Notes: generated from the sequence alone by a model not told the origin. DNA of 64,000 nucleotides from Escherichia coli (GCF_030013595.1 NZ_CP122768.1), one strand, 5' to 3'. Positions 5,295 to 16,007 are shown, counted from the stretch's first letter. Program-made: numbers and translations.

Positions 5295-6773
5295 TTACGC
5301 ATTCGACCAGCTCTGGATCGAATCCGCATTCCCCAATTCCCCATGCATCACTTCATACGATTTTTTCAGGATTACATCAGTATGTTTGGTTAACTCCTTG
5401 AAAATGCCTTTATTCATCGCGTCGTAGCGTTTGGCATTGTTCTCAACAGGCATAAAGATATCTTTCACGCGAACCATTTTGTCGACAGCCGTTGCGTAAT
5501 CCGGGTATAGCCCCAGACCTACCGCCGTATTAATCGCTGCCCCCAGGCTTGCACAACCATTAATGGCGTTACGGCGTGCCGGAAGGTTGAACACGTCGGC
5601 AAAAATCTGCATAAACAGATCGCTGTTCGAACCGCCGCCAGTAATGATCACATGCTTTGCAAAGTGATTCATTTCATTACACATATTGTCGTAATTGTTC
5701 TTCAGCGTCAGCGCCACGCTTTCCAGTATCGAACGATATATCCATGCGTAATCCATGCTGGAATCAAAGCCAATCATAATCCCGCGTTTGTACGGTTCCC
5801 ACGGATTGGTCAGCCAGTCCAGCACCGTCATCAGACCATTACAGCCTGGCGGCACACAAGACGCTTTTTTGTTGAGCAAATCTTCCGGTGAAAGATCCTG
5901 TGCTTTGGCATCCTGAATTAACGACTCGCCTAACATGTCGCGTAGCCAGCTCACCGTCCACATGCCTTTGCGAATACCGTAACCTTCATACAGCAATGTT
6001 TGCGGAATAGAAGACATAATCGGCCAGTACGCCACCGGATCTTTCGGCAGTGCTTTGCCGTTCATCATCAACGCGATGTAAGTGCCAAGAGAAATTACCG
6101 CAGTTTCATCATCCAGTAACCCGGCTCCCAGTGCTTCTACCGGTTTATCACTGGTGGTACAAACAACCGGCAGCCCAGCTGGGAAATGTGTCGCCAGCGC
6201 GGCTTGAGGAGTGATATGCCCAAGAACAGTGCCCGGCATTTGCACATCAAACAGCATATGACGGGGGATATTAAACTTCTCCATGACTGCGGCATCTTCA
6301 CTCCATGCCCAGGTCTTATAATCCACCGGCCACTGACCAAAATAGTTGGCGATATTGTCTTTAAACTCGCCGGTTAAGCGATGCGTCAGATAACCTGAAA
6401 AAGAGGTGACATATGCCACGTCAGGATTCGTATGTTCGTAAGGGCGTGTAACGCGTGCATCCTGCCAGCTAATCAACGGCGCAGCTGGCGTGCCATCGGC
6501 TTTCAATAACGCACGGCAGCAACGGATGGATCCCAGACCAATACCGACAATATCTTCTTTATTCCCGGCAAACTGACTCATCAAATCGTGACCGGCAAAA
6601 CATAATGATGCCCATAAATCGTCGTCAGGATGTTCTGCGGTATCGGCATCTGGCGTGTGCATCGGCTGCAATAAGCCTTTGCCTTCGCAAACCACATTAC
6701 CTTCCAGATCATACATCACCACTTTTGTGCTCTGACTTCCGCCATCAATCCCTATGATGTATTTTTTCGACAT
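5295..6773 (-). CDS. ygcE: FGGY-family carbohydrate kinase
   Basis: 492-aa ORF MSKKYIIGIDGGSQSTKVVMYDLEG..., FGGY kinase N-terminal motif; K-12 synteny. Confidence 0.88.
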   Translation of the reverse strand: MSKKYIIGIDGGSQSTKVVMYDLEGNVVCEGKGLLQPMHTPDADTAEHPDDDLWASLCFAGHDLMSQFAGNKEDIVGIGLGSIRCCRALLKADGTPAAPLISWQDARVTRPYEHTNPDVAYVTSFSGYLTHRLTGEFKDNIANYFGQWPVDYKTWAWSEDAAVMEKFNIPRHMLFDVQMPGTVLGHITPQAALATHFPAGLPVVCTTSDKPVEALGAGLLDDETAVISLGTYIALMMNGKALPKDPVAYWPIMSSIPQTLLYEGYGIRKGMWTVSWLRDMLGESLIQDAKAQDLSPEDLLNKKASCVPPGCNGLMTVLDWLTNPWEPYKRGIMIGFDSSMDYAWIYRSILESVALTLKNNYDNMCNEMNHFAKHVIITGGGSNSDLFMQIFADVFNLPARRNAINGCASLGAAINTAVGLGLYPDYATAVDKMVRVKDIFMPVENNAKRYDAMNKGIFKELTKHTDVILKKSYEVMHGELGNADSIQSWSNA

Positions 6774-6799
6774 GATTTTTCTCCTGTAATTTTCTGGAC

Positions 6800-8077
6800 T
6801 TACTTGCTGCTAGCCATAGCAGGGGCGCTATCAGCAGTACGAATTTTTTGGAACAGCAAAAAGGTAAAGACGATCACCATGGCAAGCGCCGCCATGCCCA
6901 TCAGCCACATATTGCGGTAGGCTTCTGCAGCGGGCAGGGTGTCTTGCCAGTAGCCGATAATCGGGTAAACGAAGACATCCGGCAGGAATCCAATCACCGA
7001 ACAAATACCTACCGTGGTGCCCATAATGTAAGACGGTGTTCTCGCTTCGCCAGGGCAGGCCCAGTACAGCCCGCGTGAGGCGTAACAGGTGAATCCCAGC
7101 AGTAAAATCAGGCCAATCCCCATCGCGACCGATTGCGGGTTAGAGTTCGTGACGAGCAGGGCAGTTAACGCCAGCAAGCCGAGTACGGAAAGGATTTGGA
7201 TCACGCGGGTAGGGGATTTCACTTTGCTGTAGGTGGAGATAATGCCACCAAGTGGGCCGCACAGTGCGCGGAAGATTTTGTTGATCACAATCCCCATGTA
7301 GCTCGCCGCCACCAGCGACATGCCGTACATTTCGGTCAGATAGTTGGTGGAGTAACTCAGAATGGCGTAGATGGTGAAGACACCAAAAATCACCATGCTG
7401 CAATACCAGGTGGTGCTGATGCGCAAAACAGCCAGGATGTCGCTAAGCTGGAATGACTGTTTTTCTTCGTTATTGGTATTGCGCAGGTTGTTGTTATCGC
7501 TAACAAAAAACCAACACAAAATGCCCAGCAGAATGTAAACCACACTATAGATAATAATGACCGTTTTCAGGCTGGCGCTGTCATCCGGTGCAAAGCGAGA
7601 AAAGACCCACATGGTAAACACCGCCAGCGACATTACACCGACGCCGCGCAGCCCTTCCATCCAGCCCATAATTTTCCCTTGCTCGCTATGATCGCCCAGC
7701 AACGAGGCGGCTTTAATCGACACCGACCACAGCATTAAAATCGTCGTTATCGCAAAGGCGACCTGAATACAGAGCATTACCCACAGCGGTGGATATGTTG
7801 CCATTAACAGACCCAGTAATCCGGTAATGATCATCGCGGAAGTAATCATTTTGCGGTGTGAAAATTTATCGGCAATAACGCCGCTGGGGGCATAAAGAAT
7901 AATAGCCGCAATACCAAAGGTACTCATTATTAAACCTATCTCGGTATTGCTGAATCCCATAAATTTCGCCATGGGAATTTGATAAATATAACGTAAATAA
8001 GCCAGGTCGAAACTAACGCCGCCGCTAAAACTAATTATCGCGAGGGTTATCCAACGGCGATATGAGTTGTGTTGCAT
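6800..8077 (-). CDS. yqcE: MFS transporter
   Basis: 425-aa ORF with about 12 hydrophobic segments; position next to ygcE. Confidence 0.8.
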   Translation of the reverse strand: MQHNSYRRWITLAIISFSGGVSFDLAYLRYIYQIPMAKFMGFSNTEIGLIMSTFGIAAIILYAPSGVIADKFSHRKMITSAMIITGLLGLLMATYPPLWVMLCIQVAFAITTILMLWSVSIKAASLLGDHSEQGKIMGWMEGLRGVGVMSLAVFTMWVFSRFAPDDSASLKTVIIIYSVVYILLGILCWFFVSDNNNLRNTNNEEKQSFQLSDILAVLRISTTWYCSMVIFGVFTIYAILSYSTNYLTEMYGMSLVAASYMGIVINKIFRALCGPLGGIISTYSKVKSPTRVIQILSVLGLLALTALLVTNSNPQSVAMGIGLILLLGFTCYASRGLYWACPGEARTPSYIMGTTVGICSVIGFLPDVFVYPIIGYWQDTLPAAEAYRNMWLMGMAALAMVIVFTFLLFQKIRTADSAPAMASSK

Positions 8078-14468: not shown

Positions 14469-14484
14469 AAATTATCCTTATTAT

Positions 14485-14745
14485 TTATCCAAAACGGTAG
14501 GTGATGCCGAATCCGGAAGGCGGATAGCGCCACTGTTGTAGTGTTGATTCGTCGCACAGCAAACGGCAGGTGCCACACTCCAGGCAGCCGCGATAATCAA
14601 CGCGTAAGTCACCTTCCGGTGTGAGCGAAAAAAGACCAGCCGGACAAGCGTTAATCAACCGTTGTACCGTCTGACGCTCAACGGAGTCAGCCGGAACAAT
14701 GTGCGGCGCATCGGCAACGCGCCAGAGATTACGGGCTACAGACAT
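14485..14745 (-). CDS. ygcO: Ferredoxin-like protein (FixX-like)
   Basis: Start at complement ATG 14745 (MSVARNLW...), Cys motifs CPAGLF...CLECGTC; 86 aa. Confidence 0.8.
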   Translation of the reverse strand: MSVARNLWRVADAPHIVPADSVERQTVQRLINACPAGLFSLTPEGDLRVDYRGCLECGTCRLLCDESTLQQWRYPPSGFGITYRFG

Positions 14746-16007
14746 CGCAGACTCCTGATAACATCGCCCGCCAGATGCCACAGGCCGTGACGACGTAAAT
14801 GACGCCAGAATAACTGGCGCAGCGGTGGAACAGGTTTATCACCCTGATCCCATAAATCGCGGGAAATATCCTGCATTAACGCAGGCCACGCACGGTACCA
14901 TCCAGGGCGTTGCAAAAGCGCCGGAACATGCTGATAACGTTGTAGAACATCCCATAGCAGGCTGCGCTCGACGTTGTGATGATAAAGCGCAAACAGATTT
15001 TGCGGCTCGCGGTGCTGGCAGGCGCTTATCAGCGTTTGTGCCGCCGCCTGCGCGCCAGTTAGCGCCATATCCATGCCGCGCACGGAAATTCCGGTATTGA
15101 CGCAACTGCGCAACGTATCGCCCACCAGCAGCCAGCCGTTACCGGCGTATTGCACCGGCATACTGTGCAAGCCACCTTCTGGCACCAGATGCGCACCATA
15201 CTCCAGTGATTCCGTGTTTTTGATAAGCGGGCGCACTGCCGGATGCGTTTTAAAGCGAGCCAGCAGCTCGCATGCCGGAGCACGACTTTGCGTAAGGGAG
15301 GAGAGCGGGCAAACAATCCCTAACGAGAGCGTTTGTTGATTAGTATAAAGAAATGCGCCGCCGGGTAAGTCATCACAGATCCCGCCGCTGAACAGCAACG
15401 CTGCGCCTTCGTTATTCTCCAGATGAAAACGTTCTTCAATAGCGGATGTTTCCAGCGACAGCACTTCTTTGATTCCTAACGCCATTGATTCGCCAGCAGG
15501 ACGAGTCACTAACCCGTGACGTTCAGCCAGGACGCTGTTGGCACCTTCTGCCAGCACCACATAACGGGCGCGGAGAATATCGTCACCACAAATGACACCA
15601 CACACCCTGCCGTTTTCTTCATACAGCGCATCCACCGTCGCACCAGGGATGCATTCGACACCTTCTTTTTCGGCTTCGGCAACCAGCCACGGATCGAACC
15701 GTGCACGTAATACACTCCAGGATTCACCGCCGGGCTGTAAGCTGGAAAACGTCGTTGCGCCATCCGGCGTTAGCAGAGAAAGGCTTTCGTGAGTGATGCG
15801 TCGTTCAAGAGGCGCGGTCAGATGAAATTGTGGGAGGAGTTCCGCGAGCGCCTGGGTATATAAACGCCCGCCGGAAAGATTTTTGCTGCCGGGGATTTCA
15901 GCGCGTTCCAGTAACAAAACGGATAAACCCGCTCGCGCGCAGCGTAACGCGCAAGCGGTGCCTGCAATACCGGCACCAATAATAATAATGTCGCAGTCGT
16001 CTTCCAT
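14736..16007 (-). CDS. ygcN: ETF-quinone oxidoreductase-like flavoprotein (FixC-like)
   Basis: Start at complement ATG 16007 (MEDDCDIIIIGAGIAGTACA...), FAD-binding GxGxxG. Confidence 0.85.
   Translation of the reverse strand: MEDDCDIIIIGAGIAGTACALRCARAGLSVLLLERAEIPGSKNLSGGRLYTQALAELLPQFHLTAPLERRITHESLSLLTPDGATTFSSLQPGGESWSVLRARFDPWLVAEAEKEGVECIPGATVDALYEENGRVCGVICGDDILRARYVVLAEGANSVLAERHGLVTRPAGESMALGIKEVLSLETSAIEERFHLENNEGAALLFSGGICDDLPGGAFLYTNQQTLSLGIVCPLSSLTQSRAPACELLARFKTHPAVRPLIKNTESLEYGAHLVPEGGLHSMPVQYAGNGWLLVGDTLRSCVNTGISVRGMDMALTGAQAAAQTLISACQHREPQNLFALYHHNVERSLLWDVLQRYQHVPALLQRPGWYRAWPALMQDISRDLWDQGDKPVPPLRQLFWRHLRRHGLWHLAGDVIRSLRCL

Follow-up and report, generated by a model that had tools for sequence, protein, structure and literature searches.

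The ygc cluster of Escherichia coli (ygcE-yqcE / ygcW-ygcU-ygcS-ygcR-ygcQ / ygcP-ygcO-ygcN) was analysed at positions 5295-16007 of the window, that is, of a stretch of 64,000 nucleotides of the E. coli chromosome. The results point, tentatively and with a chance that we put somewhat short of even, to a two-promoter catabolic regulon under the control of CRP and of YgcP-dependent antitermination, which would feed a pathway for an onium-type compound with an electron transfer flavoprotein (ETF) module as an accessory. The ygc genes were known and annotated before; their cluster is real and still counts as an open case among the function-unknown loci of E. coli (the 'Y-ome'). What is new here is the leader RNA/YgcP regulon, YgcU as a protein resembling alkyl-dihydroxyacetone-phosphate synthase (ADPS, or AGPS), the ETF as an accessory, and the quaternary-amine context. 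The regulatory anatomy, which consists of two CRP sites and two antiterminator/terminator leaders, was absent from a preliminary description of the locus.

The spacer between yqcE and ygcW is 315 bp long and carries two CRP-consensus sites, each of which is associated with a leader element as follows.

Positions 8255-8270: CRP site 1, TGTGATTACGATCACA, predicted for the ygcW promoter.
Positions 8198-8213: CRP-consensus site 2, TGTGAGAGTAATCACG, predicted for the yqcE promoter from a reading of the sequence.
Positions 8300-8374, plus strand: ygcW leader RNA element, in which the antiterminator strand AGUUACC (8306-8312) pairs with GGUAACU (8329-8335) around the purine-rich loop AGAGAUAAUGAGAAA; the terminator scan gave a 19-bp terminator at 8322-8363 and a U-run at 8362-8368.
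Positions 8098-8169, minus strand: yqcE leader RNA element, in which the antiterminator strand AAUUACU (8163-8157) pairs with AGUAAUC (8142-8136); the terminator lies at 8148-8109 and its U-run at 8108-8102.

A 16-mer identical to CRP site 1 is a CRP ChIP-seq site assigned to ygcW/yqcE in the enterotoxigenic E. coli (ETEC) strain H10407 (PMC4287617), and the same site is also predicted by PhyloScan; yqcE-ygcE has been listed as Crp-activated (PMC8085971). With the class II geometry that we infer for both promoters, ygcW transcription would start at about 8304 on the plus strand, 41.5 bp from the centre of CRP site 1 and 2 nt before the leader element, and yqcE transcription would start at about 8164 on the minus strand, 41.5 bp from the centre of CRP site 2 and just before its own leader element. 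Both predicted starts lie 1-3 nt upstream of the conserved RNA element.

The intrinsic terminators at 8322-8368 (plus strand) and 8148-8102 (minus strand) each follow the promoter/CRP site and precede the start codon. A 7-nt segment of either leader (AGUUACC for ygcW, AAUUACU for yqcE) can pair with RGUAAYY inside the 5' arm of the terminator, and between the antiterminator strands there is a purine-rich loop (AGAGA..GAGAAA), an arrangement that is classic for antiterminators which depend on a protein. The fold energy is −35.9 kcal/mol for the ygcW leader (z = −6.6) and −21.8 kcal/mol for the yqcE leader (z = −3.2). The small antiterminator hairpin alone reaches about −1.4 kcal/mol, which is so weak that a protein would be needed to hold it.

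The yqcE leader is a second, diverged copy of the ygcW leader element. A covariance model (R1), for which ygcW leaders alone were used, finds it with 54.4 bits and an E-value of 7e-8, detects exactly two copies of the element in the window, and gives a yqcE-side copy in every enterobacterial locus. Pairing in the antiterminator helix reaches 99% over 29 leaders from enterobacteria and vibrios, compared with 19-56% when the partner strand is slid by 1-3 columns; one of its pairs switches between U-A and C-G (16 versus 12 sequences) and another between A-U and G-C. In the terminator helix, pairing is 92%, and 9 of the pairs have changed in both partners. Over several phyla (30 instances with 16 distinct strand pairs), the antiterminator helix is 94% paired versus 85 ± 1.6% after shuffling, a value which none of 2000 shuffles matched, and Watson-Crick switches occur at 4 of its 7 positions.

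The element is present in 5063 of 5426 E. coli genomes and annotated in none of these 5063. A scan with Rfam 15 found no family that matches the leaders, and the region gave a sub-threshold naRNA4 fragment and a spurious snoRNA match. Using model R1 or a motif scan, the element was also found in Photobacterium, Sporomusa, Syntrophomonadaceae, halophilic Bacilli, Enterococcus canis and uncultured Firmicutes. Outside the enterics (in Photobacterium, Sporomusa, and clostridial and bacillar loci), it precedes genes for short-chain dehydrogenases/reductases (SDR), YgcU, major facilitator superfamily (MFS) transporters, BCCT and OpuC transporters, and MttB proteins. The metagenome motif scan returned mostly E. 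coli yqcE leaders, with only about 12 informative non-enteric loci.

Two side observations concern the ygcW leader. Its terminator has a U-run of variable length, with 7 T in the window, 10 in the closest genome and, in most leaders of Escherichia and Citrobacter, 9; the 4-bp difference from hit H1 is largely due to this variation, which could modulate how efficiently transcription terminates. A 7-bp hairpin specific to E. coli, UUAUCUC/GAGAUAA at 8298-8320, would hold the 5' strand of the antiterminator in its loop and competes in the computed fold. It was rejected as a part of the element, since it is missing from other genera and lies upstream of the predicted transcription start.

The candidate regulator is encoded in the ygcN-ygcO-ygcP operon.

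Positions 13893-14468, minus strand: ygcP, GlpP-family (PF04309) antiterminator protein, 191 aa.

The similarity to GlpP named in the preliminary description extends over the full length of YgcP: residues 12-184 align with positions 1-173 of the Pfam profile G3P_antiterm at 211 bits, and the best match in the Protein Data Bank (PDB) is 3kts, a 'glycerol uptake operon antiterminator' (100 bits, aligned over 11-184). The element is present in all 58 YgcP-encoding loci, 54 of which were recovered by nhmmer and the other four by the covariance model, and in 1 of the 12 YgcP-less loci with enough sequence. The ygcN-ygcO-ygcP operon itself has no such leader, so that the regulator could be produced independently of its targets. 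From its anatomy, covariation and co-occurrence, the leader element is probably the antitermination target of YgcP, on top of CRP. Where the element stands directly upstream of BCCT or OpuC genes (L003, L069, L063, L071, L135 and L141 in our numbering of the loci), these genes can be counted in the regulon. Bacilli without YgcP have, directly after the SDR-YgcU-kinase trio, a regulator of the RpiR type that carries a phosphosugar-binding (SIS) domain.

The system may be compared with GlpP of Bacillus subtilis, which belongs to the same family over its full length and acts, as is proposed for YgcP, on a terminator in the 5' leader of catabolic operons (glpD, glpFK and glpTQ), with an effector which is presumably, in both cases, the phosphorylated product of the pathway kinase. 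The two differ in that the host of YgcP is Gram-negative, CRP is superimposed, and the targets are not glp genes; moreover, the ligand of GlpP is glycerol 3-phosphate (G3P), whereas that of YgcP is probably another compound. The YgcP motif (AGUUACY/purine loop/RGUAACU) overlaps the terminator and is not in Rfam. The leader RNA and YgcP would form a variant of GlpP-type antitermination that is Gram-negative, layered on CRP and conserved across phyla. With the leader motif, a conserved cis-element would be defined for the first time for the GlpP family outside the Firmicutes, and Rfam would gain an entry. In one locus of the Syntrophomonadaceae (L056, 5587-6909), two PlsC-type acyltransferase genes (PF01553, a family that includes dihydroxyacetone phosphate (DHAP) acyltransferase) are located immediately upstream of ygcP, curious neighbours for an ADPS-like enzyme.

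The enzymes under this proposed control were compared using a YgcU scan of one genome per GTDB species, which gave 67 loci, and further loci were added by the metagenome motif scan and by context look-ups. The part conserved across phyla is the set of YgcW, YgcU and YgcE, usually with YgcP.

Positions 8393-9178, plus strand: ygcW, SDR oxidoreductase, 261 aa, similar to KduD and gluconate 5-dehydrogenase.
Positions 9248-10702, plus strand: ygcU, alkyl-DHAP-synthase-like flavoprotein, 484 aa, with the domains FAD_binding_4 and FAD-oxidase_C.
Positions 5295-6773, minus strand: ygcE, FGGY-family kinase, 492 aa, the second gene of the yqcE-ygcE operon.

The E. coli proteins share 54-73% (YgcU) and 61-80% (YgcW) identity with those of Firmicutes, Desulfobacterales or Vibrionaceae; for YgcW, the value is 75-80% against its orthologues in Sporomusa, Alkalihalobacillus and Photobacterium. 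The best NCBIfam match of YgcW is KduD-like and scores 350 bits, the cut-off being 369. The SDR is replaced in Enterococcus canis by an iron alcohol dehydrogenase similar to glycerol-1-phosphate dehydrogenase (G1PDH). In the compared loci, no aldolase, isomerase or dehydratase of the kinds usual in sugar routes accompanies the core as a conserved gene.

In a sequence search of the PDB, YgcU matches ADPS best (141 bits), followed by glycolate oxidase (94) and LctD (80). The ADPS residues R419, T568, Y578 and H615-617 (guinea-pig numbering) correspond to R262, S388, Y398 and H438-440 of YgcU, and these six aligned positions are invariant in 184 of 184 orthologues. At the position of the HHH loop, YgcU reads VHHHGIG and the GEHG-type motif of the GlcD/LctD family is missing, while the second oxidase of anaerobic relatives (FADox2) has a GlcD-type (S/G)E(H/Y)G there; on the GlcD model, YgcU scores 144 bits against a cut-off of 568. 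The AlphaFold (AF2) model of YgcU has a pLDDT of 84 and a pTM of 0.85, and the top 33 Foldseek matches to it are all ADPS structures (TM 0.80-0.83), after which D-lactate dehydrogenases appear (0.74-0.78). The eukaryotic ADPS enzymes are 584-658 aa long and have an N-terminal extension of about 170-200 residues that completes their dimer and lipid tunnel, which is missing from YgcU, as the alignment begins at about ADPS residue 140-215; for this reason, YgcU is called ADPS-like and not an ADPS. It also differs from ADPS in that it belongs to a CRP-activated, transporter-containing operon and is paired with an ETF; presumably, it acts on a small, polar substrate. YgcU resembles ADPS in its fold and catalytic residues, and not a 2-hydroxyacid dehydrogenase of the GlcD type, and its chemistry is a prediction from these similarities. 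The label 'FAD oxidase' of the preliminary description was right as regards the two Pfam domains, but the enzyme is not a generic one, given the retained ADPS catalytic set. In a PNAS paper of March 2026, YgcU is still 'an additional FAD-binding oxidoreductase'.

The best NCBIfam and PDB neighbours of YgcE are XylB, LsrK and GlpK, all far under the cut-off; on the GlpK model it scores 102 bits against 590. The motif 'NQRETT' of the Thermococcus kodakarensis glycerol kinase aligns with 'GSIRCC' in YgcE, where the glycerol-binding RET has become RCC and is not kept, and YgcE is no orthologue of glycerol kinase. In the literature, YgcE occurs as a furfural/inhibitor-induced 'uncharacterized sugar kinase'.

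A comparable order of steps is known from the erythritol route of Brucella (EryA, EryB) and from GlpK/GlpD, where an FGGY kinase is followed by flavin oxidation with the electrons passing to the respiratory chain. However, the flavoenzymes EryB and GlpD are of the DAO/GlpD type and YgcU is of the VAO/ADPS type, and the ygc system adds an SDR, has no isomerases and uses other regulators and transporters. The anaerobe locus L073 contains, at 349-5317, a divergent second set consisting of an FAD-linked oxidase, an FGGY kinase and a GlpD-like (DAO/DAO_C) dehydrogenase.

The remaining enzymes form the electron-transfer half of the cluster.

Positions 12110-12889, plus strand: ygcR, ETF beta, 259 aa; its start overlaps the end of ygcS by 23 nt.
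Positions 12886-13746, plus strand: ygcQ, ETF alpha, 286 aa, with a short N-terminal domain.
Positions 14485-14745, minus strand: ygcO, FixX-like ferredoxin, 86 aa.
Positions 14736-16007, minus strand: ygcN, FixC-like ETF:quinone oxidoreductase, 423 aa.

YgcR matches the Pfam family ETF (PF01012) at 61 bits and, in the PDB, Paracoccus ETF-beta best (45 bits); its nearest solved relatives, 1efp and 1efv, are non-bifurcating ETFs, the scores being weak. YgcQ matches ETF_alpha (PF00766) at 64 bits, with LctC as its best PDB match (82 bits). Both lie far under the ETF equivalog cut-offs and are genuine, very divergent ETF subunits. YgcO reaches 84 bits on the NCBIfam FixX model, below the cut-off, and has the 4Fe-4S motif CLECGTCRLLC (CxxCxxCxxxC); YgcN reaches 379 bits on PRK10015 and 362 bits on FixC, both below the cut-off, and contains the ubiquinone-binding domain PF21162 (ETFQO_UQ-bd). 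The FixABCX-like module of the preliminary description exists, with ETF domains in YgcR and YgcQ, a FixC-like YgcN and a FixX-like YgcO, and Pfam and NCBIfam bear out every family named there, including the FGGY kinase YgcE (FGGY_N/C), the MFS proteins YqcE and YgcS and the SDR YgcW.

The standing which that description gave to the ETF link, as the defining feature of the cluster, is not borne out. ETF and YgcNO are present in Enterobacteriaceae, Budviciaceae, Rahnella and some Serratia, and ETF alone in many anaerobes; they are absent from Erwinia, Pantoea, Izhakiella, Serratia proteamaculans-type loci and aerobic Bacilli. Between E. coli and Pluralibacter, the identity is 91% for YgcU, 93% for YgcW and 89% for YgcP, and 46% for YgcR, 46% for YgcQ, 45% for YgcO and 61% for YgcN. 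The ratio of nonsynonymous to synonymous substitution rates (dN/dS) is 0.12-0.27 for YgcR and 0.11-0.30 for YgcQ; taken together, it is 0.11-0.30 for YgcR, YgcQ and YgcO, 0.06-0.22 for YgcN and 0.01-0.05 for the core. The ETF/FixCX half evolves 5-10 times faster than the core. Because the module is missing from many clusters and diverges fastest, it is not the defining feature, and the dN/dS values of 0.06-0.30 indicate that it is under purifying selection and functional. Pseudogenisation of this half was considered and rejected on account of dN/dS values of 0.1-0.3, intact frames and the presence of the genes in 5091 of 5426 genomes. The ETF module is an accessory, loosely constrained electron outlet.

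Wherever a cluster contains ETF genes, they come directly after ygcU or after ygcU-ygcS. The ETF-less clusters often have an aldo-keto reductase (AKR), an aldehyde dehydrogenase and a Fae-like protein (formaldehyde-activating enzyme family) beside YgcS or BCCT, and this roughly complementary distribution hints that both sets handle the same reactive product. Such sets, which coincide exactly with the lack of ETF/YgcNO, are found as follows.

Loci L036, L042, L050 and L053, about 1300-5400: AKR, Fae-like and aldehyde dehydrogenase genes.
Locus L074, 5081-7390: the same set; a GFA gene is present as well.

Two known ETF systems are similar in part. LctBCD, the lactate dehydrogenase-ETF complex of Acetobacterium woodii (7qh2), likewise has an FAD-linked oxidase followed by ETF-beta and ETF-alpha, YgcQ matches its LctC best, and the second oxidase/ETF set of anaerobic relatives shares with it a Fer4 domain on ETF-alpha; however, YgcU is without the GEHG motif of that family and YgcQ without the ferredoxin domain. 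FixABCX/caiTABCDE and YdiQRST of E. coli are paralogous sets of ETF-alpha/beta, FixC-like and FixX-like proteins, which stand by a quaternary-amine pathway. The partners there are a CoA-transferase and an acyl-CoA dehydrogenase, whereas those of the ygc set are a kinase, an SDR and an ADPS-like enzyme; YgcRQ is also much more divergent, and the ygc regulation would be by antitermination and not by CaiF.

The nature of the substrate was approached from the transporters and from the genes which stand behind the element in other phyla.

Positions 6800-8077, minus strand: yqcE, MFS transporter (Pfam MFS_1), 425 aa, the first gene of the leftward operon.
Positions 10795-12132, plus strand: ygcS, MFS transporter of the sugar-porter/aromatic-acid type, 445 aa.
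Positions 10743-10764, plus strand: GC-rich 9-bp hairpin with a weak U tail in the ygcU-ygcS interval, from a terminator-like scan.

YqcE has a weak NCBIfam match of the D-galactonate/ACS type, and its Serratia orthologue is 58% identical to a Photobacterium MFS protein whose gene has the leader element upstream. In Erwinia-type loci, ygcS is in one operon with the AKR, Fae-like and aldehyde dehydrogenase genes. Overexpression of YgcS, which is 26% identical to NiaP, gave more nicotinamide mononucleotide from nicotinamide (PMC8601175). The hairpin before ygcS could be an attenuator that lowers the expression of ygcS-ygcR-ygcQ, or a stabiliser of the ygcWU message.

BCCT transporters are encoded in L002, L003, L004, L069 and L074, and OpuC-type ABC systems with an OpuAC binding protein stand directly behind the element in L063, L071, L135 and L141. 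MttB-family methyltransferases flank or end the operon in L072, L073 and L093, and in L134, L082 and L152 MttB is the first gene behind the element, with an OpuC system after it. Quaternary amines are demethylated by those non-pyrrolysine members of the MttB family that have been characterised. From this context, we infer that the pathway handles a hydroxylated compound of the trimethylammonium type and not a plain sugar, and this is carried over from the other phyla to E. coli because YgcU and YgcW are 72-80% identical.

The preliminary description had expected a phosphorylated polyol or sugar acid. A phosphorylated intermediate is indeed likely in view of the FGGY kinase, the GlpP-family regulator and the RpiR/SIS protein of YgcP-less Bacilli, but 'polyol or sugar acid' is probably too plain, since BCCT and OpuC transporters and MttB-family methyltransferases belong to the regulon of other phyla. 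A 2025 study of the MttB-family protein MthB found that it takes choline only once it has been phosphorylated by a kinase, and the known substrates of the family are all acidic quaternary amines (PMC12155760). This is a precedent for 'kinase first' on a hydroxylated onium compound. The MthK-MthBCA system of Eubacterium limosum is similar in that a hydroxylated quaternary amine is phosphorylated before processing, and MttB genes are found in the YgcP regulon of anaerobes. It differs in that its kinase is protein-kinase-like instead of FGGY, it has no SDR, flavoenzyme or ETF, and E. coli is without MttB or a corrinoid partner.

These results can be combined into the following mechanism. CRP-cAMP would activate both divergent promoters, where CRP binding in vivo has been shown by others, and the default leader fold, a strong intrinsic terminator, would keep the operons off. 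YgcP, made from the separate ygcN-ygcO-ygcP operon and loaded with the phosphorylated intermediate, would bind the 5' hairpin AGUUACY/purine-rich loop/RGUAACU; the hairpin thus held would tie up part of the 5' arm of the terminator and permit read-through. A small hydroxylated compound with a terminal diol, probably an onium compound, e.g., of the glyceryl-betaine type, would be imported by YqcE and/or YgcS. YgcE would phosphorylate the primary hydroxyl to give the phosphate ester that serves as the YgcP ligand, and YgcW would oxidise the adjacent secondary hydroxyl with NAD(P)+ to yield a 1-substituted DHAP analogue. In YgcU, acting in the manner of ADPS, a C1 carbanion would form an adduct with flavin N5, after which the C1 substituent would be expelled in a redox-neutral step or C1 would be oxidised. 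The three-carbon phosphate would enter glycolysis/central metabolism, and in the oxidative case the flavin electrons would pass through YgcRQ (ETF) and YgcN/YgcO to quinone.

The kinase, the SDR and the ADPS-like enzyme look like ether-lipid enzymes run backwards, which suggests glyceryl ethers or glyceryl-onium compounds as substrates; we take YgcE and YgcW to mirror the alkylglycerol kinase and the alkyl-DHAP reductase (an SDR) of eukaryotic ether-lipid metabolism. In its boldest form, ygc would be a so far undescribed system for glyceryl-onium or glyceryl-ether breakdown with ADPS-like C1-O/C1-N cleavage through an N5 adduct, a private ETF and a new GlpP-family protein-RNA switch that extends from E. 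coli to Clostridia, a proposal that we consider improbable as a whole. Candidates, as a matter of speculation, are the deacylated head groups of the betaine lipids diacylglyceryl trimethylhomoserine (DGTS), diacylglyceryl hydroxymethyltrimethylalanine (DGTA) and diacylglyceryl carboxyhydroxymethylcholine (DGCC), or dihydroxypropyl-trimethylammonium. To our knowledge, E. coli makes no ether lipids, and the context of transporters, CRP and kinase argues for catabolism. Ether-lipid biosynthesis was rejected for E. coli, though two PlsC-type acyltransferases flank one clostridial cluster.

Several points weigh against the regulon and pathway proposed here. The YgcP-RNA step was deduced from anatomy, covariation, co-occurrence and the analogy with GlpP, and both transcription starts are predictions. 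One locus, that of Serratia microhaemolytica (L035), has both leaders and no ygcP within 21 kb; it is the sole exception, and its ygcP may lie elsewhere in the genome. The E. coli cluster has MFS genes and not BCCT, OpuC or MttB genes, so that the onium assignment is a transferred one, and the associated BCCT, OpuAC and MttB proteins match no NCBIfam equivalog that would give their specificity. The order in which the kinase precedes the SDR is assumed, and redox-neutral ADPS chemistry does not itself explain a dedicated ETF. In addition, proteomics of Citrobacter amalonaticus, which has a ygc cluster (L014), reported Fix/Cai and not ygc proteins on choline or carnitine; the common quaternary amines, choline and carnitine among them, are for that reason unlikely substrates.

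Four other explanations were weighed against this proposal. An oxidative route for an ordinary phosphorylated polyol or sugar acid, in which YgcU or YgcW is the dehydrogenase and the ETF-FixCX chain is essential, agrees with the gene families, with the closeness of YgcW to KduD and gluconate 5-dehydrogenase, with the weak similarity of YqcE to D-galactonate-type anion symporters, and with the E. coli cluster having no BCCT or MttB gene. It is made unlikely by the loss of ETF and YgcNO, the least conserved part, from many orthologous clusters, by the ADPS catalytic set of YgcU in place of the GEHG of GlcD/LctD-type dehydrogenases, by the lack of a conserved sugar-route aldolase, isomerase or dehydratase, and by the betaine-type transporters and partners in the regulon elsewhere. 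A second idea is that YgcU is a redox-neutral lyase or hydrolase for the C1 substituent, releasing, e.g., trimethylamine or an alcohol together with DHAP, with ETF/FixCX serving another purpose, such as reductive activation, or running in the reductive direction. ADPS (EC 2.5.1.26) works without net redox turnover and its catalytic residues are invariant in YgcU, many clusters work without a dedicated ETF, and FixABCX of E. coli is linked to the reduction of a quaternary amine derivative in carnitine respiration. However, the position of the ETF genes directly after ygcU or ygcU-ygcS, like that of LctD-LctBC, suggests a direct partnership, and alkoxide and amine leaving groups have widely different reactivities; we regard this idea as rather improbable.

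A second route for glycerol or G3P, where YgcP senses G3P, YgcE is a paralogue of glycerol kinase and YgcU-ETF is a G3P dehydrogenase that yields DHAP, receives the least weight from us. The nearest solved relative of YgcP in PF04309 is indeed a glycerol-operon antiterminator, glycerol kinases are among the nearest solved FGGY relatives of YgcE, and an ADPS-like site should bind a DHAP moiety. However, the RET of glycerol kinase is RCC in YgcE, the transporters of the clusters are MFS, BCCT or OpuC with no GlpF-type facilitator, the SDR would be superfluous, L073 has a separate pair of GlpD-like and FGGY genes beside the cluster, and E. coli mutants in glpK or in glpD/glpA are not known to grow on glycerol. 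Glycerol and G3P were rejected as substrates because there is no GlpF, the kinase motif is not kept and the SDR is unnecessary. It is also conceivable that the leader hairpins are ordinary bidirectional terminators or insulators, with YgcP regulating in another way or regulating nothing and the cluster being a cryptic remnant in E. coli. Low laboratory expression and the silence of the literature on a phenotype would fit this explanation, and the terminator stem is palindromic and scores on both strands. It is rendered improbable by the fact that each hairpin is sense-oriented and downstream of its own predicted promoter, that the 5' motif, which is not palindromic, has been conserved and shows covariation with the 5' arm of the terminator, that the element tracks YgcP across phyla, that all ten genes are under purifying selection and present in 93% of E. 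coli genomes, and that CRP binds the region in vivo. In place of the guess of 'some sugar', the proposal of a CRP- and YgcP-controlled catabolic regulon offers a defined RNA to which YgcP would bind, class II promoters predicted at two CRP sites and a few uncommon compounds as candidate substrates. Should the quaternary-amine link be true, it would bear on the gut and marine turnover of trimethylammonium compounds, the precursors of trimethylamine, and the pathway would give bacterial ADPS-like flavoenzymes their first physiological role.

The cluster extends from the stop codon of ygcE at 5295 to the start codon of ygcN at 16007 and aligns over its full length, at 99.9%, with RefSeq genomes in which all ten ygc/yqc genes are annotated. 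The gene order in the window is pyrG-eno-ygcG-queE-CRISPR-[ygc cluster]-queD-cysJIH, and in Enterobacteriaceae the cluster always occupies the queE/queD interval. Of 5426 complete E. coli genomes, 5060 (93%) contain it at a coverage of 80% or more, which places the ygc genes among the better-conserved Y-ome loci. All ten reading frames are intact, and dN/dS indicates purifying selection on each gene. None of the ten proteins reaches an NCBIfam equivalog cut-off, which indicates that none is an orthologue of an enzyme of known function.

The statement in the preliminary description that no substrate has been assigned agrees with the literature: a published assignment was looked for, and none was found in about 8 million full texts to mid-2026, subscription journals being outside this coverage, so that the evidence is strong but short of proof. 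A concept-level search of the same 8 million texts found no paper on a ygc-type system, and none was found there on bacterial catabolism of betaine-lipid head groups. The incidental mentions of ygc genes include genomic-SELEX promoter lists.

Some further features of the region were observed. A REP-like palindrome (GCCTGATAAGACGCG..CGCATCAGGC) lies at 13780-13830 in the spacer between the convergent genes ygcQ and ygcP, with a sub-threshold Rfam naRNA4 match of 29 bits. A type I-E CRISPR array with about 6 repeats (repeat GAGTTCCCCGCGCCAGCGGGGATAAACCG) is located at 4323-4716 in the queE/ygcE interval and is annotated in the closest genome too. The gene ygcG (TPM-domain), at 2025-2942 on the minus strand, is broken into open reading frames of 141 and 152 aa, in agreement with its annotation as an 'internal stop' pseudogene in the RefSeq genome closest to the window. 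The cluster reaches an identity of at least 99% in just 28 of 5431 E. coli records, the closest being pig and ETEC isolates, and the synonymous divergence (dS) from representatives of other Escherichia species is high at 0.13-0.59, with queD and queE included. The ygc locus, which adjoins the CRISPR/cas-cysH region, looks unusually polymorphic.

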